Shown: positions 3,046-22,546 of the stretch, piece by piece
Layout of the letters: the number at the start of each line of letters is the position of its first letter
Numbering within the stretch: the first letter of the stretch is position 1
Assembly (NCBI GenBank): GCA_965140585.1
Contig: OZ223264.1
Span: 224,001-288,000, forward strand
DNA length: 64,000 bases
Direction of reading: 5' to 3'
From: Spirochaetia bacterium
GTDB taxonomy: Bacteria; Spirochaetota; Spirochaetia; UBA9216
Position numbers and translations under genes: made by a program
Notes under the pieces: model-generated
Database searches by the model: none
What the model was told of the DNA's origin: nothing
The model's input: the letters and a program-made list of their open reading frames with translations, nothing else

Positions 3046-3525
3046 ATGGGACGTAGACGAAAACCTGTTGAGGTGATGAAAAAGAAAGGAACATATAAAA
3101 AGCACCGACATGAAAAGTTCCAAGGTCAGCTTAAAGTTCCTGTCGTTGAAAATGTTCCAAGACCAATAATGCCGCTTAATCAATACGGTTTGTATGAATA
3201 TTACAGGTTGTGCAGAGAACTAAAAGAACTTGAGATTCTGGGTGACATTGATTTGTCGCTTGTAGAGATGGCTGCAAATTATTATGGAACGTATGTTGAG
3301 AATTTTAATTACATCATTAACAACTACGGTTCTGTATCAAAATATCTTGTCAATAAAACAAACAATACAGCAATGATTTATACGAGTATGAACAACGCAT
3401 TCAAATCCTATGTAGATGTAGGGTCCCGGTTCGGTATTACACCGACTGCGAGATTGAATCTGCCAAACAAGAATGATGGAGGTGGTGAAGATGAGTTTTC
3501 AAAATTCTTAAATGAGGTTTCATGA
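3046..3525 (+). CDS. terS: Terminase small subunit (P27 family)
   Basis: MGRRRKP N-terminus, C-terminal RFGITPTAR motif; overlaps terL (ATGA). Confidence 0.9.
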   Translation: MGRRRKPVEVMKKKGTYKKHRHEKFQGQLKVPVVENVPRPIMPLNQYGLYEYYRLCRELKELEILGDIDLSLVEMAANYYGTYVENFNYIINNYGSVSKYLVNKTNNTAMIYTSMNNAFKSYVDVGSRFGITPTARLNLPNKNDGGGEDEFSKFLNEVS

Positions 3526-5171
3526 GAGTTGATGATTTAAAAAAGTATTGTAACCATGTAATAGCAGATAACAAAAACTATTGTAAAAACTACCAATTAG
3601 CCTGTAAGCGTTTTTTAAAAGATGTTGAATCAGATAATCAATACTACTTTGATGAGTCTGAATCAGAGAAGTTGTTTCTATTCATTCAGAATCTTAAACA
3701 GTTTGAAGATGTCTTTTTTGATAAACCACTCATATTAGAAGATTGGGAAAAGTTCATCCTTGCTCAAATCTATTGTTGGAAAAAGAAATCGGATAACAAG
3801 AGACGTATAAAAAGAATCTATATCCAAGTTGCCAGAAAGAACGGAAAGACAATTTTAATGTCAGTGATTGCTCTATATTCATTGATTGTTGGTAAGTCTG
3901 AAGAGATTTATTCTCTGGCCTCCAAGAAAGACCAGGCTAAGATTGTATATGACAAGATGTGTGGAATCATCAGGCAAACGGGTCTTGAAAAGTATTACAA
4001 AATCTTTCGTGGTGAGATAAGAAACAAGAGCAACAAGTATGTGTATGTTTCTGCTGACCACAAACTTCAAGACGGAACAAACCCCTCGATTGTTATTGCT
4101 GATGAGTATCATGCCCACCCGACAGATGAACTTCTTAATGTTTATACATCAGGTATGGGAGCACGTTCAGAACCTCTTGTTCTAATCATTACAACTGCCG
4201 GTTTCAATTTGGATGGACCATGTTATGAAGAATATGAGAGAGCAGAGAAAATCTTAAATGGTATTTATGAAGATGAATCATATCTGCCAATAATATTTGA
4301 GCTTGATGAATCAGACAGTTGGGAAGATGAGTGTGTATACAAGAAAGCAAATCCAAACCTTAATGTCAGTGTCGGTCTTGAGTATCTACAGGGACAGAAG
4401 CTTGAAGCTCAACAACGCCCGTCTAAGCGTAGAGACTTTCTAACCAAGAATCTGAATATCTGGGTTGATGGTGCTGAGAGTTGGATTGATTTACAGACAT
4501 GGAGAAAGAATAAAGAGTTTTTTGATGTTAATGAGCTTGAAGGTAGAGATTGTTTCGCTGGTTTAGACTTATCAGCAGTGTCAGACTTAACTGCATATTC
4601 ATTATACTTTCCACCAGATGATAAAGATGAAAAAGTAAAAGTTCTTCATAAATGCTACATACCAGAATCTTCCATAGACAAGAAAGAGAAATTTGAATCA
4701 ATAAAATTCAGAGAGTGGATAGACCAAGGTTATGTTACTCCAACGCCAGGTGAAGTAGTTGATTATTCATATCTTGTTGATGACCTACTTTCAGATGCCA
4801 AACTGTACAACATAAAAGAGATTGCCTTTGACTCTTACCTTTCCAAGAACATTATAAAACCAATCGAAGATGAGCTTGGTGAAGATGTAATGATTGAAAT
4901 GAGACAGGGTTTAATTAACTTCTCTCCATGGACCAAGGAATGGGAGAAAGATGTTTTAGCAAATCGAATAATTGATTTCAATCCTGTTATGGAATGGTGT
5001 ATCTCAAACACTGTTATCAAGACAGACCAGAATGGAAACTATAAACCACTCAAAGAGAAGCCGAATAAAAAGATTGACCTTGTAATCTCATCAATTATGG
5101 CACATGCCAGAATGACCGCCGTTGATAGAGAGGAATTTCGTTCCATCTTTGAAGTGCTGATGTCTGAATAA
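3522..5171 (+). CDS. terL: Terminase large subunit
   Basis: Walker A VARKNGKT, Walker B VIADEYH, ITTAG, nuclease GLDLS and KIDLVIS motifs. Confidence 0.97.
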   Translation: MRVDDLKKYCNHVIADNKNYCKNYQLACKRFLKDVESDNQYYFDESESEKLFLFIQNLKQFEDVFFDKPLILEDWEKFILAQIYCWKKKSDNKRRIKRIYIQVARKNGKTILMSVIALYSLIVGKSEEIYSLASKKDQAKIVYDKMCGIIRQTGLEKYYKIFRGEIRNKSNKYVYVSADHKLQDGTNPSIVIADEYHAHPTDELLNVYTSGMGARSEPLVLIITTAGFNLDGPCYEEYERAEKILNGIYEDESYLPIIFELDESDSWEDECVYKKANPNLNVSVGLEYLQGQKLEAQQRPSKRRDFLTKNLNIWVDGAESWIDLQTWRKNKEFFDVNELEGRDCFAGLDLSAVSDLTAYSLYFPPDDKDEKVKVLHKCYIPESSIDKKEKFESIKFREWIDQGYVTPTPGEVVDYSYLVDDLLSDAKLYNIKEIAFDSYLSKNIIKPIEDELGEDVMIEMRQGLINFSPWTKEWEKDVLANRIIDFNPVMEWCISNTVIKTDQNGNYKPLKEKPNKKIDLVISSIMAHARMTAVDREEFRSIFEVLMSE

Positions 5172-5231: not shown

Positions 5232-6461
5232 ATGGCATTATTTAATGTAAGAAGAAAACCGCAGAATGAAACCCGTAAACTGTCCTTGGAAGATTTGTTT
5301 AATTACAGATATTACGGGACGATTGATAAATCTTACATCAATCAGTTATCAGCTTTGGAGAATGAAGCAGTTTATGCCTCAATTAAAATCATAGCTGAAA
5401 CATTGGCTGGTTTTCCGATTCAAACATTCATCAAAAATGGTGATATAAAAACCAAGGATAATTCCTACTTTCTTTATAGAACTCTTAATTATCCGAATGC
5501 CGAATTAGATAAATTCACATTCTGGGAAACTTTCTATACAAACCTTTTAACACATGGAAATGCATACGCCTATATCTATCGGGATAGTTTTAGTTCATAC
5601 GCTCAGTCGCTGTTCATTCTCCCATCCAAGTATGTAAGTGTAAAACGTAATAACGGAAAGTTAGAATACCACTTTAAAGAACCGACTAAAGAATTAAAGA
5701 TATATAAAAAAGAGAATGTCTTCCATATAAAGCTTACTTCATTCGATGGCCTTGTAGGTCTCTCGCCTATGGAGCTGTTCAAGCTTCAAATCCTTGAATC
5801 CATAACCGCTGATAATTATAACTACAATTTCTTTGACAAGGGGATACTCAGTAATATTGCTCTGAACATCCCGAATAATAACAACTATACGAAAGAACAA
5901 ATCAATTACATCAAACAGCAATTCATAAACAGCCATGGTGGATTAAAGAATCAGAATGAACCTATTGTTCTTGATTCAGGCACAGAGATAAAAGAGTTTA
6001 AAGGTTATTCAAATAAAGACAATTCAATTGTTGAGTTAAGAAAAGAAGCGCTCTTAAAGATTGCTCGTGTCTACAGAATACCTCCTCACATGCTTCAGGA
6101 GTTGGGTAATGCTACTTACTCTAACATTGCACAGCAGTCATTGGATTTTTATAAACAGACATTACTTCCTCACATACAGCGTATCGAATGGGGATTGATA
6201 CACCAGTTAATACCATCCAACCACAGAGAGAAGAGGTTTGTAAAACTCAACATCAGTTCAGTTCTTAGAGCTTCTGATAATGAAAGAGCTTCTTACTACG
6301 ACATCATGCAAAAGAACGGAAACCTCTCAATCAATGAAGTCAGACGATTAGAAGATCTCCCGCCTATAGAAGCTGCTGTTGCTGATTACCACTTTAACCA
6401 ACTGAACATGTCTCCAATCGAAGTATGGCAGAACGACAAAGATAAGGATTTAAAAATATGA
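5232..6461 (+). CDS. HK97-family portal protein
   Basis: AVYASIKIIAETLA, LLTHGNAYAYI, GLSP, IARVYRIPPHML, SINEVRRLEDLPP motifs. Confidence 0.96.
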   Translation: MALFNVRRKPQNETRKLSLEDLFNYRYYGTIDKSYINQLSALENEAVYASIKIIAETLAGFPIQTFIKNGDIKTKDNSYFLYRTLNYPNAELDKFTFWETFYTNLLTHGNAYAYIYRDSFSSYAQSLFILPSKYVSVKRNNGKLEYHFKEPTKELKIYKKENVFHIKLTSFDGLVGLSPMELFKLQILESITADNYNYNFFDKGILSNIALNIPNNNNYTKEQINYIKQQFINSHGGLKNQNEPIVLDSGTEIKEFKGYSNKDNSIVELRKEALLKIARVYRIPPHMLQELGNATYSNIAQQSLDFYKQTLLPHIQRIEWGLIHQLIPSNHREKRFVKLNISSVLRASDNERASYYDIMQKNGNLSINEVRRLEDLPPIEAAVADYHFNQLNMSPIEVWQNDKDKDLKI

Positions 6462-9819: not shown

Positions 9820-10806
9820 ATGAGTTACGCAGGAACAAATACACAGTGCCAATTATCCATTGAATCAGTGTGGGGCACTAACCCAGGAACAGGCGATACC
9901 CTATTAGCAATACTCTCAGAGGGGATGAAATATAACATCGACACAGCGAGTGAAGAAACTCTGCTTGCCGGTAAGACTGTCTCAGGTGTTGATATTATGG
10001 GTGTTGGTGTTGAGGGTGATTTATCACTTTATGTACGGCCATCAACTATAGGATATCTGCTTGCACTTTCATTCGGAGAAGAGGGAACACCTTCTGTTAC
10101 ATCAGGTGGGACGCTCGCTTATGACCACATCTTTACATTGATAGAAGCAGATGCTGCAAGTTCACTTCCTTCTACCACAGTAATAGTTGATAGAAAGGCC
10201 GCAGTTAAAGCATATACCGGTTGTAAAGTTGACAGCATAGAATTCTCAGCGTCTGCAAAAGAGTATCTAAAATGTAAGTTAAACCTCAAAGGTAAGAGTG
10301 AAGAAACAGGAACTATCGATAGCGGATTAAGTAATCCTACATCATATAAGCCATTCAGATTCATTGAAGGAACAGTAAATGTAAATGGTGCTTCTGCTGG
10401 TTATATTACTTCATTCACAACTACTGTTAGCAACAACCTTGATGATGGTGAGCCGGTACTCGGAAGCGGAATATACGGAACAGAAACTGAGGTTCAAGGG
10501 CGTGAGGTAGCACTTACTCTTGAGTGTTTCTATGATGCCAGTTCAGAGTTAATCAGAGAGAATTACTTTAAAACAGGTAATGCAATATCAGTTGATTTGA
10601 TATTTGAATCCACTGCTGAAGCTGAATCAGGTATTCCATATACATTCAAATTGGAACTTCCAAACGTTGTGATATCAGATGCCAATCCACCTGTGTCAGG
10701 TAAAGAGAAAGTCAAAATGACTATAAACGGAACAGGTATTGAGACATCAGGTGAAGAGCCAATCACAGCAACAATAATTGATTTGAAATCAGATGCTTAT
10801 ATTTAA
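9820..10806 (+). CDS. Major tail tube protein
   Basis: ESVWGT N-terminus, YTGCKVDSIEFS, beta-rich; position in the tail module. Confidence 0.85.
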   Translation: MSYAGTNTQCQLSIESVWGTNPGTGDTLLAILSEGMKYNIDTASEETLLAGKTVSGVDIMGVGVEGDLSLYVRPSTIGYLLALSFGEEGTPSVTSGGTLAYDHIFTLIEADAASSLPSTTVIVDRKAAVKAYTGCKVDSIEFSASAKEYLKCKLNLKGKSEETGTIDSGLSNPTSYKPFRFIEGTVNVNGASAGYITSFTTTVSNNLDDGEPVLGSGIYGTETEVQGREVALTLECFYDASSELIRENYFKTGNAISVDLIFESTAEAESGIPYTFKLELPNVVISDANPPVSGKEKVKMTINGTGIETSGEEPITATIIDLKSDAYI

Positions 10807-16500: not shown

Positions 16501-17127
16501 ACAACGTTGAATTCAACAAATATAAATGGAACTCAAATATGTGCTGGGTATGACCCGAATGTTGATAACTCTGTTAGTTGTTCAAATTGGTTTCGTTCAT
16601 CAGGAAATACTGGGTGGTATAACGCTACTTATGCTGGTGGACTTTATATGGTGGATACAACATATGTTCGGACTTATAACGGAAAGTATTTTTATGCAAA
16701 CAGAGTTTATGGTGCTGTTGGTAATGACTATGCAGATGCCATAGAAATTGATGAAGAGTTGAATGTTGATTTTGGCTATGTCTATGTTAGAACTGCTGAA
16801 GGTAAAACAAGAAAGTCAACCAAATATGCAGAAAAAGGGATCATCGGAATAACTACAAATACCCAGTCTTTTACTGCTCATTCTTATGATGGAGAAAAAG
16901 ACAGATTACCAATTTCAGTTTCAGGATTTGTATTGGCTCATACAGATAGAATTTATAAATCAGGAACACCTCTTACTTCATCAAAAAATGGATTACTTAC
17001 TAAGGCTAGTCTGATTACTCGTGTCTTTAAACCTGAAAGAGTTATAGCAACGTTTTATAAAGAGATAAGTCAAAATACTTGGAATGATGTTGATGTAAAT
17101 AAAAGAAATATAGTGAGAGTTAAATAA
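13573..17127 (+). CDS. Tail tip/central fibre protein (hub + FN3 + LamG-like + fibre motif + C-terminal intramolecular-chaperone-like domain)
   Basis: YRVRRV..SDWS (FN3), SITADKI repeats, WFLCAISYD/YMDE (LamG-like), WFRSSGNTGWYN..GGLYM, GAVGNDYADAIE. Confidence 0.8.
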   Translation: MLAYVDFGSGESNISDYIISSSFKRTLQLCNEELCYVVNKCSFEIKGSTTLKLQIMNSDDTTIRITEDDGTAYFKGKVRGTFETKISSQVGNLKVELVDNLDDITATVETVDIWSGYKICDSSNTSASILHQLFYLAGYSSSDLSLVDVDVTIPYFYLEEDTAVIDIISDLTFQYGQVINCELDGTFKNYSIYYDDLTTSSYLNNTNIYGELGIKKVEEKYKSVKVIWNPIEYAADKVVFSDITNGTTLLQCNIELEPSQYYQDDDEIFANYTYNDEELVYVENASLDISCDADISYSITEAPKGAYLSIQNTNSTINENITKLDITGDVYYKGAQHTEYSSNISDTKDIEEIEASYIFEEAYAQNLASYHAVYYKYSDFKYTAKSKDYYPIGTLVLINETAFTNLDVTGFVSQIVDDGTGYYTYTIYSVSEFSAQPITTKVSTISKTNTQISIPTIVEEVSNNITVEGVPTYNEINTGASLLNEGSATTTIPDVPTVVVEEYYKSLRIVYDVQDNLSNFSHYEIQVSADESNWYSLASGSNWKDTLNDTTATIFYYHTHAGIPNSGTSQEPTGTTLSYRVRRVTSANVESDWSDVVTGTTKIIETGDVAASSITADKIEAGSITSDKLSTDLLQTQIAQVSGSITIDSSYGFVGVDNDTKRRVYLDTDEVVVEQYNETTGDSVVQCRMGGKIKGAPSSYIIGNGLIKNENVEIPTAIPDTTYKFTFETDFSDTTATYYFSNDTETTPTIDTSKYVFGTHSMKLVSTNGESSVSDWFIPTWTGGNPFFFASYFYIPTGTTAHFSFQVGAVYMDCVHLGISTLSGWADGYVTKDGVDCGATGTIDIPYDEWFLCAISYDPVLDTLSVSVNDNYITASIDNSTAWAGSTDYMMGNIIYWNDTSESIYMDETVLDVETFIDISEAIKQYSRTETWNIGEDISDNLYLIPGEGGSVIIGGDITFSNAFTLTDAEITTLNTTTLNSTNINGTQICAGYDPNVDNSVSCSNWFRSSGNTGWYNATYAGGLYMVDTTYVRTYNGKYFYANRVYGAVGNDYADAIEIDEELNVDFGYVYVRTAEGKTRKSTKYAEKGIIGITTNTQSFTAHSYDGEKDRLPISVSGFVLAHTDRIYKSGTPLTSSKNGLLTKASLITRVFKPERVIATFYKEISQNTWNDVDVNKRNIVRVK

Positions 17128-17651: not shown

Positions 17652-18089
17652 ATGGCTTTACTCGTAGATTTAAAAGCAGATAGTAATTACTCACAAATAG
17701 ATTTAACTGATGTCTATGTTCGTATAGATAGAGTTCAGATACAACCCAAGTTTGGGATTATGAAAATGACAGTAGAGGGTTATATCAGTCCTGATGTCTC
17801 GTCTGTTATTAGAGGAATTGAACAAGCACAGACAACCTTTGCTTCTAATTTCTTTGAAGAGGTGGGGAGTGATATTATTTCAGGCAGTTTGTATAACTCT
17901 GTCCAAGAAGAACGGAGTATGTTAGAACCACCTCCATTCACACAAGATTATCCAGTAGCACTATTCAATGATGTATTTACTGTAAGGCTAACTGAAGAGA
18001 CTGCTTCAACTTCTGTAGATGACCTTTATCCCATCTTATATGAAATGCTTAAAACAGAAACAAGATTTCAGAATGTCAGGGATGCTTGA
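17652..18089 (+). CDS. Phage protein, possible tail fibre assembly protein
   Basis: AGGAG SD; MAL...VYVRIDRVQI pattern; position after the fibre genes. Confidence 0.45.
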   Translation: MALLVDLKADSNYSQIDLTDVYVRIDRVQIQPKFGIMKMTVEGYISPDVSSVIRGIEQAQTTFASNFFEEVGSDIISGSLYNSVQEERSMLEPPPFTQDYPVALFNDVFTVRLTEETASTSVDDLYPILYEMLKTETRFQNVRDA

Positions 18090-18478
18090 TGGAAGAGGAG
18101 AGAAGAAAAGACAGAATTGATTTTCAAACTTATATGGAGGTTTTGGTGAGCAACGTAAAAGAAACTGTCAAAATAGAACTGACCTCTGTAAAGCAGGAAA
18201 TCAAGAACTTGGAAGAGAAGGTAATTACTCGCATTGACCTTCATGAAAAAGAAAGCGGTAACAAGATAACAAACATTGAAGAAGAGTTGGACTGTCTTAA
18301 AACCAAGGTCTCAAGTATTGAAAACAGAGTTGAAGCTTTGGAGTTGAAACCTATCAAGGATAATTCTGAGACAATAGAAAAGTTTAAATCAACATTCAAA
18401 AAGATTCTGTATACCACATTAGCAGGAGGGATAATCACTTTTATTTTGTATTTAATAAAAATGTTTTTAGGTGTTTAA
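18086..18478 (+). CDS. Coiled-coil protein with C-terminal TM helix (holin/antiholin-like)
   Basis: Heptad-rich body plus ILYTTLAGGIITFILYLI; first gene of the lysis cassette. Confidence 0.55.
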   Translation: MMEEERRKDRIDFQTYMEVLVSNVKETVKIELTSVKQEIKNLEEKVITRIDLHEKESGNKITNIEEELDCLKTKVSSIENRVEALELKPIKDNSETIEKFKSTFKKILYTTLAGGIITFILYLIKMFLGV

Positions 18479-18479
18479 A

Positions 18480-18944
18480 ATGTATATATTTCAAAATCAC
18501 AACGACCTGTATCCAGTTATTCAGGATGTGGGTTGTTACTTTCGGTCATGCCTTCATATTGCCGAGTTAGAAAGTCACAAGATTCTATCACCAACTCAGA
18601 TAAATAGATTATGGGATAAGGCAAATAGTTTAGGACAGATTATTGATTCTAATCTTAAAAAGCCAGGTCCGTTAATTGAACTTGGTTGCAAGGAGCTTGG
18701 ATTAGATAGGACTGCCTTTGATGTCGCAATCTTCAAGTATGGTCAGATTGATTATTATGGTTGGGTTAAATCACATCCTCAATACAAGAATTATAAATAC
18801 CTGATTCAGAAAGTTCAGACTGTAAATGATCATGAACATTATAGGGTTGTAGATGTATTTGGCAATGTAATATTTGACCCATATCATCCATCACCTGAAG
18901 TTAGCTTTATTTATAGTTCTATTCTGTTCTATGTAGGAGCTTGA
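18480..18944 (+). CDS. DUF261-like / C39 papain-fold protein, candidate endolysin
   Basis: Q..L...IQDVGCYF...QIN..W, HEHY, IFDP give a Cys-His-Asp arrangement; lies within the lysis cassette (alternative GTG start 18471). Confidence 0.65.
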   Translation: MYIFQNHNDLYPVIQDVGCYFRSCLHIAELESHKILSPTQINRLWDKANSLGQIIDSNLKKPGPLIELGCKELGLDRTAFDVAIFKYGQIDYYGWVKSHPQYKNYKYLIQKVQTVNDHEHYRVVDVFGNVIFDPYHPSPEVSFIYSSILFYVGA

Positions 18945-19307
18945 ATGGATGGTAAGAAAGTTATTATCAATATTACTTGCACTCTTGTTGTTTCAGCCTG
19001 CCTATACTTGGGCGGATTCTTTACTGCCAGAAGTATCTATAGTCGAGCAGTTGACGAATGTAATATTTCAATTGCAGAAAGTACAGAACGATATAACCAG
19101 TTATCAGAAGCTTATACAAGAATTACAGAAATCAATTCAGACTTACAAGGCAGACTCGATTCAAGCATCTTTGAAGCTGAAAGAGCAACAGGCATTATTA
19201 AATCAATATCAGAAGGACTTGGAAGCACATCAGGAGACATACAATCAATTATTGAATGCCTACAACGAATTGTTGAACAGATTAGAGAATATGAAGGTTG
19301 TGAATAA
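18945..19307 (+). CDS. Spanin-like protein A (N-terminal TM or VSAC lipobox + coiled coil)
   Basis: Hydrophobic N-terminus, heptad pattern, periplasmic Cys residues; AGGAG 5 nt upstream. Confidence 0.6.
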   Translation: MDGKKVIINITCTLVVSACLYLGGFFTARSIYSRAVDECNISIAESTERYNQLSEAYTRITEINSDLQGRLDSSIFEAERATGIIKSISEGLGSTSGDIQSIIECLQRIVEQIREYEGCE

Positions 19308-19380
19308 TATCTTAATCGGGACAACTGTCTCATTTGGCTTATTTGTAATCATTAAAGGTTTTATCATATGGAAAAGTTAA
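18949..19380 (+). CDS. Spanin-like protein B (cleavable signal peptide + coiled coil + C-terminal TM), overlapping A in the +1 frame
   Basis: MVRKLLSILLALLLFQPAYTWA-DS, Gln/Leu heptads, ILIGTTVSFGLFVIIKGFII; same AGGAG 9 nt upstream. Confidence 0.65.
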   Translation: MVRKLLSILLALLLFQPAYTWADSLLPEVSIVEQLTNVIFQLQKVQNDITSYQKLIQELQKSIQTYKADSIQASLKLKEQQALLNQYQKDLEAHQETYNQLLNAYNELLNRLENMKVVNNILIGTTVSFGLFVIIKGFIIWKS

Positions 19381-19541
19381 AAAGCAGAAAATTTATTACA
19401 TGGATTGTAACAACTCTACTTTGCATAATCTCAGTTTTTATAACTAAGACTATATCTCCAGAATTGATAAACTGCTATACAGTGATAACAGTTTTATATA
19501 TTGGAGGGAATACAGTTTCTAAGTATTTTGAGAAACGATAA
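19368..19541 (+). CDS. Holin, 57 aa, two TM helices
   Basis: MEKLKSRKFITWIVTTLLCIISVF...VITVLYIGGNTVSK; SRKF and Y..GN holin-type motifs; below the ORF-track cutoff. Confidence 0.8.
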   Translation: MEKLKSRKFITWIVTTLLCIISVFITKTISPELINCYTVITVLYIGGNTVSKYFEKR

Positions 19542-19544
19542 TGT

Positions 19545-19988
19545 TTAGGGTATCTCGATTGATGTTGAAGAACTTTTTATCCAATTGTCAAGTTGCTCGA
19601 TTACTGATTTAATTTCAGAGGGTTTTTTCTTCTTGATTGCACATTCCCATATTATTGCTATCCGCCAGCCTTTACTTTTTAAATTCCGAATATTTGTACT
19701 ATCTCTTTCTACATTCTCTTGTAATTTTTTTTGCCAAAATTCTGTTCTGGTTTTTGGTAGTACAAAAAGAGGGCAGTTGTGCATATGCCAAAAGCAACCG
19801 TGAACAAAAATGACTACTTTATGTTTGGTTAATACAATATCAGGTTTACCGGGTAATTTTTTTGAATGTAGAGAATATCGATATCCAGAAGCAAATAAAC
19901 CTTTTCGAATTACAAGTTCAGGTTTTGTATTTTTAGCTTTAATACCACTCATCATTTTTGAACGAGTGGCAGGCGATACAATATCCAT
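19545..19988 (-). CDS. vsr: Very short patch repair endonuclease
   Basis: DIVSPATRSKMMSGIK.KNTKPE, LPGKPD, FVHGCFWH, IWEC. Confidence 0.97.
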   Translation of the reverse strand: MDIVSPATRSKMMSGIKAKNTKPELVIRKGLFASGYRYSLHSKKLPGKPDIVLTKHKVVIFVHGCFWHMHNCPLFVLPKTRTEFWQKKLQENVERDSTNIRNLKSKGWRIAIIWECAIKKKKPSEIKSVIEQLDNWIKSSSTSIEIP

Positions 19989-21235
19989 TATTTTACAAGC
20001 ACTAAATCTTCATGCTTTTTCATTGCATTGATAACAATCGGTTTAATAACTTTAGCAACTTCAGAAAAAACAGGGACAACTACACTATTACCAAATTGCT
20101 TATATGCTCTAGTGTCGGAAACCGGAATGTCGAAACTGTCATCAAACCCCATTAATCTGGCACATTCTCTGGGCGTTAGCCGTCTTGGGTTTTTGTTTTT
20201 TTGGTGAACTAAAATTTCTGAACCATCTTTATAATATCTGGCAGATAGAGTTCTGGAAACGTCGTTTTCTTTAACAAGGCCAAATCCAAATCCATTTCCT
20301 TTTGCTCTATGTTTCTCGGCATAGTTTTGTAAATAAGCCCAAAGTTTATCTGTTAAAGTATATTTGTCATGTACCTTGTTATTTTTATGGTCAAAATATT
20401 TATCCTTATCATGTTCAAGGAAAAGTTCAGAACCATCTGTTTTGTGAAGGATGCTACCAATCTTAACTTGCCCTTTTGGTGGATAGTTTAACATATCCCA
20501 GTCAAACTCAGCTTCATTTTTGAATCCAACAATAATTATTCTTTCTCTATGTTGTGGTACCCAATGTTGTCCATCTATTATGTGGGGATAGACATTGTAT
20601 TCTAATTCTTCTCGAAGTGTTCGCATAATTACTTTAAAGGTGTTCCCTTTATCATGTGATTTTAGATTCTTCACATTTTCAAGAACGAAAGCTTCTGGTC
20701 TTTTAGCATCGATTATTCGAGCTACATCGAAGAAAAGAGTTCCTTGTGTTTCATCTTCGAAACCATGCAATCTTCCAAGAGATATTTTTTTTGACACTCC
20801 AGCTATTGAGAATGGCTGGCAAGGGAATCCTGCCAATAATACATTGTGGTCTGGAATCTCTGACACCTCAACTTTTGTTATGTCTCCGTTTAAGAGTTCA
20901 CCATCTCTATAATTTGCAGCATAGGTTTTCTGAGCATATGAATCCCATTCAGAAGTAAAGACACATTCACCACCAGCTTTTTCAAAGGCATTTCTAATCC
21001 CGCCAATTCCTGCAAATAAATCTATAAATTTGAATTCACCATTAGTCTTTTTACCGATAGTTTGTGCTGAAATCAATTTCTGTAATCTATCAACAACATA
21101 ATCTTTTGGTTCAGATTCATTTTTTAACCAACGTGTGACTGTACTTACATTTACATCAAGTTCGTCAGCAATCTCTCGTTTAGTATAATAATTTAATGCA
21201 TTAGACAGATAATCGATAGTTTTGACTGTGCTCAT
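19988..21235 (-). CDS. dcm: DNA cytosine-5 methyltransferase, Dcm/M.EcoRII-like (likely CCWGG), with N-terminal HTH
   Basis: FIDLFAGIGG, AGFPCQPFS, LENVKNL, QHRER, KGNGFGFG, RTLSARYYKDGSEIL, KQFGNSV. Confidence 0.95.
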   Translation of the reverse strand: MSTVKTIDYLSNALNYYTKREIADELDVNVSTVTRWLKNESEPKDYVVDRLQKLISAQTIGKKTNGEFKFIDLFAGIGGIRNAFEKAGGECVFTSEWDSYAQKTYAANYRDGELLNGDITKVEVSEIPDHNVLLAGFPCQPFSIAGVSKKISLGRLHGFEDETQGTLFFDVARIIDAKRPEAFVLENVKNLKSHDKGNTFKVIMRTLREELEYNVYPHIIDGQHWVPQHRERIIIVGFKNEAEFDWDMLNYPPKGQVKIGSILHKTDGSELFLEHDKDKYFDHKNNKVHDKYTLTDKLWAYLQNYAEKHRAKGNGFGFGLVKENDVSRTLSARYYKDGSEILVHQKNKNPRRLTPRECARLMGFDDSFDIPVSDTRAYKQFGNSVVVPVFSEVAKVIKPIVINAMKKHEDLVLVK

Positions 21236-21246
21236 GAAATCCCCTC

Positions 21247-21286
21247 CCTGGGAACATATATTGCATTATGCACTATTTATTCCCAG
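21247..21286 (-). promoter_or_regulatory. Inverted-repeat operator upstream of dcm containing a CCWGG site
   Basis: ctgggaa...ttcccag arms enclosing tgcat-t-atgca; CCTGG at 21247-21251 next to the SD. Confidence 0.5.
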
Positions 21287-21355
21287 ATGAACAGGTTTAT
21301 TTTGAGTTAATTCCTCAGAAATGTCAATTATTATAAAGATTATATATGAATGGAC

Positions 21356-22546
21356 TTATTTCTGCTTTCTATCCCTTAATCTTTCTGTTCTTGAATATAG
21401 TTGAATGAGTTTTTCTTCTTTAACCCTAAAGCAGGTTCCATGATTTCGTTTAGTATGCATCCTAATTTCCATCATAACATCTCCTGATTCAATAAGCTGG
21501 ATAAACTCCTTTATTGAGGGGCCTGAATAATAGGTTAGCTCTACATAATGAAATTCTTCATTCTTATCTTTACCTCTATTTTCGGCACCGATATACGCAC
21601 TTTCTGTAAGCTTTTCATTTAGTCTAAATTGAATGGTCGTAAAATCATATTTTCCTATAGGAGTGTTATTAAAACATAGATATACGTTTTCAGTTTCATT
21701 ATCTACAGAAAGACTTAGATTGTGGGTATTAATGTTAATGGTCGGTGTTGAATACAACGCTTGACGTTGGTTTTCAGCATCAAAATAACCATACCTCTCA
21801 AGTCTCTCATTTTGATTTTTGGAGCCATCAATCCATTCCGGTTCTTTGAGAAATAAATTCATTTTTTCTTTAGATTGATTTTGTTTTAACCTGAAGCATT
21901 TCAGCTCAATACCCTTGAAGTCTGGTCCTGAAGAATTATTCTCTTCTATACCCATTAAAGATTCAAATGTGTATCCTACTCCTGTACTTCCAGAACGAAG
22001 TGTTTTGACATAACCCATTTCTTTAATTTTATCAAATTCCTCTAACAGTATATCGATGCCATTATTTCGCTGTACTGGTTGAATTGATAAGTGCCAATCT
22101 AAATCTAAAAAGAAAGAACCTTGTAAATTTGATAAATTTAGTTCAGAAAGTAATTCGGAATAGTAGATATGGTCAGGCTCAAGAATATGGATTTCATAAG
22201 TTCTTTTATAATCTTTTCTTCTTCCTACAATTATAAGAGTATGTTCAGGTACAGAATTGACTGATGTCTTTAGGCGCGTTATTCGTCTCTCAGGATACCG
22301 ATGGTAATGTTTATAATTACCATCCTTAACTTCAATTGTTCCTGTGTCATTCCAAAGATAGCTAATTTGTTCTGTATAATTTATTGATACATTCGGGATA
22401 AAGTTGGTAATTGCAGGAAAAAGTCTATATGCTTCAACCGGGATAAGAACGCCATGTCTACCAGAATCATCATTTTTAGTTAATATCTTACAGAGGATAC
22501 CATCTACATTTTCATAATTGATAAGAATTTTTGATAATACAGACAT
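21356..22546 (-). CDS. MvaI/BcnI-family restriction endonuclease with EcoRII-N-like N-terminal domain
   Basis: GSTGVGYTFESLMGIEENN..GPDFKGIELK, RNHGTCFR; N-terminal KILTKNDD..HGVLIP. Confidence 0.85.
   Translation of the reverse strand: MSVLSKILINYENVDGILCKILTKNDDSGRHGVLIPVEAYRLFPAITNFIPNVSINYTEQISYLWNDTGTIEVKDGNYKHYHRYPERRITRLKTSVNSVPEHTLIIVGRRKDYKRTYEIHILEPDHIYYSELLSELNLSNLQGSFFLDLDWHLSIQPVQRNNGIDILLEEFDKIKEMGYVKTLRSGSTGVGYTFESLMGIEENNSSGPDFKGIELKCFRLKQNQSKEKMNLFLKEPEWIDGSKNQNERLERYGYFDAENQRQALYSTPTININTHNLSLSVDNETENVYLCFNNTPIGKYDFTTIQFRLNEKLTESAYIGAENRGKDKNEEFHYVELTYYSGPSIKEFIQLIESGDVMMEIRMHTKRNHGTCFRVKEEKLIQLYSRTERLRDRKQK

Follow-up and report, generated by a model that had tools for sequence, protein, structure and literature searches.

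A twin-start pair of fully overlapping genes in Spirochaetota prophages, a candidate spanin equivalent

We analyzed a stretch of 64,000 nucleotides from the genome of a Spirochaetia bacterium (GenBank assembly GCA_965140585.1, contig OZ223264.1, positions 224,001 to 288,000 of the forward strand), which is called the window here and whose own numbering is used throughout. The window hosts a plus-strand tailed-phage prophage with a lysis cassette as its last genes, in the order XhlA-like gene, endolysin candidate, A/B, and holin candidate. A and B are two open reading frames (ORFs) that lie on top of each other in different frames. A preliminary description of this DNA had reported a single AGGAG followed by ATGGATG, with starts at 18945 and 18949 and an overlap of about 360 nucleotides, and the sequence bears this out, as it reads AGGAG, CTTGA, and then ATGGATG, with A and B overlapping over 359 nucleotides (18949-19307). 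The TGA stop of the endolysin candidate (18942-18944) comes one base ahead of the ATG of A. The features of the cassette are as follows.

18086-18478, plus strand: XhlA-like lysis accessory protein with a coiled coil and a C-terminal transmembrane (TM) segment (Pfam XhlA, E 2.3e-7, 31.3 bits against a cut-off of 34.7)
18471-18944, plus strand: endolysin candidate of 157 amino acids (weak DUF261 match, E 0.004, under the cut-off)
18935-18939, plus strand: Shine-Dalgarno (SD) sequence AGGAG, inside the 3' end of the endolysin-candidate gene, 5 nucleotides before the A start and 9 before the B start
18945-19307, plus strand: ORF A, 120 amino acids, ATG at 18945 and stop at 19305-19307
18949-19380, plus strand: ORF B, 143 amino acids, in frame A+1, ATG at 18949
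18960-19010, plus strand: joint coding of the A anchor (residues 6-22) and the hydrophobic core (h-region) of the B signal peptide (residues 5-16)
19309-19359, plus strand: C-terminal TM segment of B (residues 121-137), wholly 3' of the A stop and the sole single-coding part of B
19368-19541, plus strand: holin candidate of 57 amino acids with two TM segments (MEKLKSRKF...; weak PHROG holin match, E 0.015)

We consider it very probable, judging from the sequences compared, that positions 18945-19380 encode two real proteins in two frames. When A was kept fixed and its codons were resampled, the B frame was open in 0.07% of 20,000 trials with the codon usage of the genome and in 0.035% with that of the prophage; with B fixed, the A frame was open in none of 20,000. 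The second frame is expected to contain 6 to 9.5 stops under this resampling. The more conservative test of shuffling synonymous codons within the gene gave the same picture, with 0 of 5,000 trials open when B was fixed and 3 of 5,000 when A was fixed. As a negative control, the XhlA-like gene of the window has 11 stops in its -1 frame and 15 in its +1 frame. Throughout the genome, a second same-strand frame is open over at least 80% of the length in 21 of 1,744 gene-like ORFs of 100 to 250 amino acids, and the 15 that we inspected among the other 20 look like shadows of other genes, none of them with the features of A and B. The window locus by itself is thus an oddity of about 1 in 100, so it is its conservation in other genomes that provides the decisive evidence. 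The composition of the two frames is also informative: GC (guanine plus cytosine) fractions by codon position are 0.43/0.42/0.215 for A and 0.39/0.23/0.41 for B, and a codon model from 1,268 long ORFs of the genome gives 0.256 bits per codon for A and -0.06 for B (genes of the window, 0.04 to 0.53). Codon usage therefore favors A and protein conservation, described below, favors B, so that neither frame appears to be a mere shadow of the other.

Relatives of the pair were reached through the endolysin candidate; 8 of 401 class genomes contain a homologue of it, and in three the match is strong. Two of these three were the entry point to the loci L006 and L007 (L numbers designate the loci compared), in which a small membrane ORF comes after the endolysin homologue and is followed by a fully overlapping pair with the architecture and frame relation of A and B. 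Window B aligns end to end with the B of L007 (E 2e-5), and the match between the two A proteins is not significant (E 2.0). A B profile of three rows added the pairs L016 and L017, and one of five rows, searched against 1.84 billion representatives, found 441 matches at E <= 1e-3, 22 at E <= 1e-10, and 4 at E <= 1e-30. Many of the 441 proteins have 140 to 160 amino acids and match end to end, with a common plan of signal peptide, long heptad region, and C-terminal TM segment. A profile of 32 rows matched 58 of the 401 class genomes at E <= 1e-5, from which 30 loci were returned. Window B matches this profile with E 3.1e-33 over positions 1-147 of 149, which places it in a family of proteins with signal peptide, coiled coil, and C-terminal anchor like TP_0222 of Treponema pallidum.

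A B-like ORF is found at 22 of the 30 loci (the window and 21 others), and in all of them the -1 frame, the one used by A, stays open for 106 to 227 codons across the midpoint, against 1 to 44 codons for the +1 frame. An A run as long as the observed one arises in 0 to 59 of 3,000 synonymous shuffles of B at 18 of 20 loci. A phylum-level sample (18 of 301 genomes with matches at E <= 1e-6) added L069 and L076, from other classes, with A frames of 161 and 119 codons, respectively, and the IMG/VR contig L077 codes for a C39_2-like hydrolase, a holin-like ORF, A/B with starts 4 nucleotides apart, an XhlA-like ORF, and terminase genes. The 24 genomic loci span 11 families and 18 genera, although some are close kin and do not count as independent (L039/L040, L046/L049/L058, and L047/L052). 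The A stop precedes the end of B in 20 of the 21 loci with both ends assigned, the exception being L069, in which A runs past B; the TM segment of B is consequently single coding in those 20 loci. The preliminary description had taken both frames for real genes and had named homologues with only one frame open as the finding that would speak against it; in every B-family locus that we examined, both are open. This conservation is the decisive argument that, as far as sequence comparison goes, the dual-coding arrangement has been kept across Spirochaetota prophages and that the overlap is not due to chance.

The other eight loci returned by the profile are outside the family. They include three coiled-coil proteins of 653 to 656 amino acids (L061-63), where the A frame is open for 3 codons, and the XhlA-like proteins of L065 and L067, without signal peptide, where it is open for 7 and 17; the rest are two tandem-repeat proteins and one protein of 399 amino acids, in DNA of 53 to 66% GC. 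The XhlA-like proteins of L065 and L067 (genomes G099 and G158), with 153 to 163 amino acids and a C-terminal TM segment, contain near-perfect tandem repeats (...DIEHLQKDTIQLKASVNTLDEKIGK...), and their -1 frame is closed. Searches with the A and B sequences of the window themselves recovered little. Against 60 relatives, B matched only itself and, with E 0.0067, the inside of a frame of 587 amino acids, and A matched only itself and, with E 0.005, the inside of one of 595 amino acids. In a word-indexed protein collection, B found only itself and A nothing, and a tblastn search of INPHARED phages gave four records for B, all with E >= 0.7, and none for A or for the A and B of L046. Pattern scans of IMG/VR with the endolysin candidate, B, A, P0022, and P0038 gave no matches.

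The shared SD with close starts claimed in the preliminary description turned out to be conserved as well. In 17 of the 19 loci with starts assigned by script, B starts at an offset of -2, +4, or -5 nucleotides from A, i.e., 2 to 5 nucleotides away; the other two have offsets of +13 and +37, the window has +4, and inspection by eye suggests -5 for L051 and L054. The -2 form is ATGTGG (ATG for B, GTG for A), and the +4 form appears as ATGAATG, ATGGATG, ATGAGTG, or TTGAATG. The chance of finding a start codon at any of the four in-frame positions within 5 nucleotides is about 17%. The frame relation of B to A is +1 in all 21 loci with both starts assigned, and a single purine-rich SD ahead of the twin starts is visible in most of the homologous loci that we printed.

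Besides being open, the A frame appears to be constrained as a protein. The alignment of the A frames of L007 and L016 scores 103, compared with 43.8 +/- 11.2 in shuffles that preserve B, none of 400 of which reach that value; for the window and L016, the score is 52 against 29.7 +/- 6.2 (1 of 400 shuffles), and for the other four pairs, 13 to 92 of 400 shuffles reach the observed score. By BLASTP, the A proteins of L007 and L016 match with E 1.4e-8 and their B proteins with E 2.6e-7. Inside the overlap, position 2 of the B codons (position 3 of A) changes at least as much as position 1 in 4 of 5 comparisons of close pairs, and in the single-coding tail of B, position 2 is the most conserved in 4 of 5, both from small counts.

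Lipoboxes also arise in A. The preliminary description had pointed to a possible one (VSAC) in the window protein. Of 23 A homologues, 4 have a true lipobox where the anchor ends (LFTGC in L046, LFTSC in L049, LSSC in L058, and FPGC in L060), with the Cys sitting exactly where the TM segments of the other A proteins end, and these 4 represent at least two independent lineages. In the window, VSAC is midway in a hydrophobic segment of 21 residues that aligns with Cys-free TM segments of homologues, so that window A probably has a TM anchor; we considered it as a lipoprotein and set this aside as unlikely.

Protein A of the window has a short basic N-terminus (MDGKK), an anchor that is its one hydrophobic segment (residues 6-22, Kyte-Doolittle value of 2.19), one long helix, and an acidic C-terminus containing Cys, of which the protein has five. 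Its predicted topology is N-in, C-out, like that of an i-spanin. B is Cys free and hydrophobic at residues 5-16 (2.62) and 121-137 (1.90). We identified by eye a signal peptide at residues 1-22 with a type-I signal-peptidase-like site (...AYTWA/DS, with the slash at the cleavage point), so B is predicted to be a type I protein (N-out, C-in) after signal cleavage, with a helix of about 95 residues and a C-terminal TM segment. Hydropathy and the AlphaFold2 (AF2) models thus agree with the preliminary description in that the anchors are of opposite polarity, N-terminal in A and C-terminal in B. These features are well preserved in the homologues, with exactly one hydrophobic segment, N-terminal, in 23 of 23 A proteins, an N-terminal one in 21 of 21 B proteins, and a TM segment within the last 35 residues in 20 of 21 B proteins. 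A single stretch of DNA (18960-19010 and its equivalents in the homologous loci) encodes the membrane-targeting segment of both proteins.

The AF2 model of A, based on a 22-row alignment, is a single helix over residues 3-119 with a predicted local confidence (pLDDT) of 94.8, and that of B has a helix at 2-19, a low-confidence break at the predicted cleavage site, and a second helix at 27-142 (pLDDT of 91.2). The preliminary description also proposed that A and B form a complex. When their periplasmic parts were co-folded, the ipSAE score was 0.39, against 0.00 for the best of three controls, which the tool grades as weak support, with the warning that a pass of 0.60 or less is wrong in the majority of cases if the pairing was not already likely on other grounds; contact agreement between runs was at least 87%, and partner pLDDT was at least 80.

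Family searches with A and B in Pfam, PHROG, and NCBIfam gave only sub-threshold coiled-coil noise. The profile phrog_18860 (141 positions, function unknown) matches the A proteins of the window (E 3e-3) and of L046 (E 1.6e-5) over nearly the full length, so A-type proteins may already be annotated in some phage genomes. Profile matches in the PDB (designed coiled coils, tropomyosin, chemoreceptors, and viral fusion heptads) reflect composition, and we rejected them as homologues. In one PDB entry, 8qox_B, a "conserved membrane protein" of 475 amino acids, residues 334-469 match positions 16-145 of the B profile with E 4.4e-8; this could be a solved relative of B, with coiled coil plus anchor, or a match by composition alone. 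In the ESM Atlas, unnamed Spirochaetota and Uroviricota clusters appear at 0.92 to 0.94, with recognition under the 2300 mark, and we use them as leads only.

The placement in a lysis cassette that the preliminary description had suggested is well supported by the neighborhood of the pair. Endolysin-candidate homologues in L006, L007, and L008, with 30 to 39% identity, are within lysis cassettes, and the window holin candidate resembles, by eye, proteins of 85 to 90 amino acids that follow the endolysin in those three loci. Pfam domains in 96 same-strand neighbor ORFs from 21 loci include the hydrolases Peptidase_M15_4 (two), M23 (two), VanY (one), CHAP (one), and Amidase_2 (one), as well as phage genes (Mu Gp27 in three cases, Mu Gp48, a tail assembly chaperone, a holin family, and XhlA). 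The pair comes directly after the hydrolase or one small membrane ORF later, and the hydrolase is of seven different kinds, namely, DUF261-like (window, L006, and L007), VanY (L041), CHAP (L046), M23 (L049), Amidase_2 (L060), M15_4 (L064), and C39_2-like (L077). Holins and spanins show this kind of mosaic, in which the partner stays the same and the neighboring hydrolase fold is exchanged. L008 (2228-2678) is a homologous cassette with XhlA-like, endolysin-homologue, and holin-like genes in which the position of A/B is occupied by an overlapped i-/o-spanin pair. This consists of a 76-amino-acid protein with an N-terminal TM segment and weak Rz-like PHROG matches (E 1.5e-3 and 3e-3) and a 99-amino-acid lipoprotein (LTSC) that overlaps its 3' end, and by its sequence it is a classical pair. 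We therefore regard a function of A/B in the lysis cassette as likely, with good confidence. In the window itself, a relaxed lipobox scan in all frames of positions 1-24000 gave A itself as the only o-spanin or u-spanin candidate of the cassette. Neighboring genes of the cassette overlap also at its other junctions, by 8 nucleotides between the XhlA-like gene and the endolysin candidate (18471-18478) and by 13 nucleotides between B and the holin candidate (19368-19380); such overlapping or abutting junctions suggest translational coupling along the whole cassette.

One member of the B family is already in the databases as TP_0222 of T. pallidum (Y222_TREPA, "uncharacterized protein"). Window B matches its homologue in L016 with a BLASTP E of 1.4e-8 and has the same architecture. 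In L016 (positions 1383-1863; the same locus as L041, in a 1.1-Mb genome), the TP_0222 gene is fully overlapped by a -1-frame ORF of 123 to 135 amino acids with an N-terminal hydrophobic segment. This ORF is unannotated and starts either at a GTG 2 nucleotides after the ATG of TP_0222 or at an upstream ATG. The pair comes directly after a VanY-type peptidase and is near genes of the STAS and SpoIIE types. In the one relevant paper found, TP_0222 is treated as a hypothetical protein and used as a strain marker (PMC10013896).

Our best explanation is that A and B belong to an unrecognized family of twin-start gene pairs that is the spanin equivalent of Spirochaetota phages, to which we assign a probability of about 60%. 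Taken separately, the spanin-equivalent role is a possibility that we place a little short of even odds, and the idea of a new machine for outer membrane disruption or membrane remodeling, built as a heteromeric rod of two helices with opposite anchors and encoded in two frames, is more tentative still. Under this explanation, ribosomes at the single SD would choose one start or the other, in a mutually exclusive way, and the synthesis of the two proteins would be coupled in a fixed A:B ratio. A would be a bitopic protein with an N-terminal anchor and a long periplasmic helix, or a lipoprotein in some lineages, and B would be exported by its cleavable signal peptide and have its long helix held in the cytoplasmic membrane by the C-terminal TM segment. 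The two helices, of about 95 residues each (about 14 nm at 0.15 nm per residue), would pair in the periplasm. With both anchors in the inner membrane, the helices would be expected to run antiparallel, with a tip formed by the new N-terminus of B and the acidic C-terminus of A directed towards the outer membrane; a lipoprotein A could instead sit in the outer membrane, parallel with B, as in the classical spanin bridge. After the action of holin and endolysin, the A-B complex would then disrupt the outer membrane, with B as a type I, C-terminally anchored partner replacing the small lipoprotein o-spanin. The SNARE-like mechanism put forward in the preliminary description is pure analogy, and we found no support for it. 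An adaptation to the spirochaete envelope, also proposed there, seems plausible, with the family present in 11 families of the phylum.

Several observations weigh against this explanation, some of them against the spanin role and others against A as a gene. Window B is Cys free and not a lipoprotein, and in most lineages both proteins would be anchored in the inner membrane, with nothing that visibly holds the outer membrane. Neither protein has a significant match to a spanin family, the best for B being phrog_89 ("Rz-like spanin," E 0.038), with none for A and no Pfam spanin match. TP_0222 is chromosomal in a 1.1-Mb genome, without phage genes in the 3.4 kb examined, and this neighborhood suggests that the pair can serve a cellular role; the locus may be a domesticated lysis module. 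As for A, two GC-rich loci reach the observed run in 230 and 662 of 3,000 shuffles and are not individually significant, and antisense frames are likewise open in L006, L007, and L016. A is less conserved than B (76% versus 85% identity between L006 and L007), and, by BLASTP, window A matches none of the other A proteins significantly (E >= 1.4). The starts were chosen as those nearest to the hydrophobic segment, and some loci have alternative upstream starts. Last, the N-terminal hydrophobic segment of A is largely dictated by the codons of B, because the Leu- and Phe-rich signal peptide of B uses TTN codons, which are hydrophobic in the -1 frame. In the window, 88% of within-gene codon shuffles retain a Kyte-Doolittle value of at least 1.6 in this segment (18960-19010), and the range across loci is 44 to 99.7%, compared with 2 to 51% under uniform synonymous choice. 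We have therefore not counted the hydrophobic segment, or the TM prediction for A that follows from it, as independent evidence.

The most serious alternative accepts A and B as real proteins of a lysis cassette that are not spanins, acting instead as an inner membrane partner or timer of the holin, as a tether, activator, or "releasin" of the endolysin, or as an XhlA-like accessory, and in T. pallidum as a regulator of the VanY-type peptidase. The inner membrane type of both anchors in most lineages fits this idea, as does the fact that a peptidoglycan hydrolase is the tightest and most constant neighbor, often with a stop-start overlap, and that the T. pallidum copy is beside VanY in surroundings that are not of phage origin. 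B also resembles the signal/coiled-coil/C-anchor proteins of the TIGR04211 type, below the threshold (20 to 37 bits against 65). However, the cassettes already have a separate holin candidate and an XhlA-like gene, the spanin pair of L008 is exactly where its relatives have A/B, and the seven unrelated hydrolase folds next to the pair argue against a regulator that binds a specific enzyme. We consider this alternative rather unlikely, and we prefer the spanin-equivalent family.

The remaining alternatives deny one of the two genes or join them. B could be the only gene, with A as a long shadow ORF produced by the codon composition of a coiled-coil family. It is B that profile searches find across the phylum, with better conservation than A, and the gene caller of the protein collection called B and not A in this genome; the hydrophobic N-terminus of A also follows from the B codons. 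Against this, shuffling the B codons closes A in nearly all trials at 18 of 20 loci, the -1 frame is closed in other genes for coiled-coil proteins with a TM segment, and the A-frame starts are within 5 nucleotides of the B start in 17 of 19 loci. The similarity among A proteins exceeds what B conservation gives, lipoboxes arise in A, NCBI calls A and not B at L017 and L046, and the codon usage of the window favors A, so we consider a B-only locus very unlikely. Even less credible is the reverse, a real A with B as the shadow. The codon usage and GC by codon position of the window are more gene-like for A, but B belongs to a full-length profile family (the 441 library matches at E <= 1e-3, 22 of them at E <= 1e-10), has a conserved signal-peptidase-type site and a C-terminal TM segment beyond the A stop in 20 of 21 loci, and is open in only 3 of 5,000 shuffles of the window with A fixed. 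Equally improbable is a programmed frameshift that would join both frames into one product, e.g., the body of A with the C-terminal TM segment of B. The A stop just ahead of the part coding for the B TM segment (20 of 21 loci) would allow it, since the product of a late +1 shift would have an anchor at each end. Nevertheless, in nearly all loci each frame has its own start behind the SD and its own N-terminal targeting segment, and we noticed no conserved slippery motif by eye, no search aimed at one having been made.

Among known lysis systems, the pair is close to Rz/Rz1 of phage lambda, in which lysis-cassette genes also share DNA in different frames and adjoin the endolysin and holin genes. 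A has the N-terminal TM domain and helical periplasmic domain of an i-spanin, with the orientation being inferred. B differs from the o-spanin, a small outer membrane lipoprotein that is usually Pro rich and unstructured, as it is a Cys-free helix of 143 amino acids with a C-terminal TM segment. The geometry of the overlap is different too, since A and B overlap almost totally, with starts no more than 5 nucleotides apart and one SD, and neither protein is a member of a curated spanin family. According to the spanin survey of Kongari et al. 2018 (PMC6139136), embedded or overlapped o-spanins occur in the +1 or -1 frame, and about 70% of the embedded ones start at 0.4 to 0.5 of the length of the i-spanin. 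The survey explicitly names a type I subunit with a C-terminal anchor as possible and did not look for it. The u-spanin gp11 of phage T1 is described there with a lipoprotein signal and a periplasmic domain that is mainly beta strand, and B, with its signal-peptidase-I-like site and long helix, differs in both respects (PMC6139136). Most B homologues end their signal with an A-x-A type site (TWA/DS, AYA/DS, and SWA/DH) and so lack the N-terminal lipoprotein feature of gp11. The C-terminal TM domain of gp11 has its counterpart in residues 121-137 of B. Unlike gp11, B always comes with an overlapping partner gene.

A parallel for the starts is S105/S107 of lambda, where two close starts in the same frame share one ribosome-binding site and produce nearly identical lysis proteins in a set ratio. 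A and B likewise have close starts on one SD, with the difference that the frames are different and the products unrelated. B also resembles XhlA (PF10779, from Bacillus PBSX-type cassettes) in its coiled coil, C-terminal TM segment, and presence in a lysis cassette, but it has an additional signal peptide and no XhlA match at E <= 0.1, and the XhlA-like genes of the window, L065, and L067 have no open -1 frame. Nor is B a TIGR04211 (SH3_and_anchor) protein, as window B scores 21.4 bits and six relatives 20 to 37 bits against the cut-off of 65, matching only the coiled-coil and anchor part. A full-text literature search found no description of spirochaete spanins or of the A/B overlap.

Genome annotation treats the two frames unevenly. 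The protein collection has B of the window and not A, the frame annotated by NCBI is A at L017 and L046 and B in T. pallidum, and a profile of A searched against 5.8 billion proteins recovered only four called proteins. Pipelines thus call A or B, never both, so that one protein per locus is missing from the records, the TP_0222 locus included. Long same-strand overlapping genes are rare in bacteria and usually met with doubt; in this family, a second frame of about 120 codons has stayed open at more than 20 loci, together with a twin start. If the interpretation is correct, few same-strand dual-coding regions known from bacterial or phage DNA would be as long and as widely conserved, and a hidden second protein would overlap TP_0222 and its relatives. 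The family would also offer a natural system in which to follow the evolution of two helical membrane proteins on one DNA and the splitting of ribosomes by one SD. The pair is the obvious candidate for the spanin of spirochaete phages, and phage biology, as well as the genetics of those spirochaetes that are hard to manipulate, can make use of lysis modules as parts.

Upstream of the cassette, the prophage contains the following genes.

3522-5171, plus strand: terminase large subunit
5232-6461, plus strand: portal
9820-10806, plus strand: tail tube
ending at 17127, plus strand: fibre-like ORF of 1184 amino acids, taken from the ORF list

No RNA run is listed among the sequencing runs that contain this DNA. 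Contigs from two sequencing runs of one study are identical across the stretch that they cover and offer no informative variation; the sole difference between runs is an 11-base omission at 19434 in one X2 contig of low depth (2.9). Just past the last prophage gene, on the minus strand at 19545-22546, are genes for a Vsr mismatch endonuclease (E 9e-32), a C-5 cytosine methyltransferase (E 7e-88), and a restriction endonuclease of the MvaI/BcnI family (E 1e-43); together they form a complete type II restriction-modification module, Vsr repair partner included, at the boundary of the prophage.

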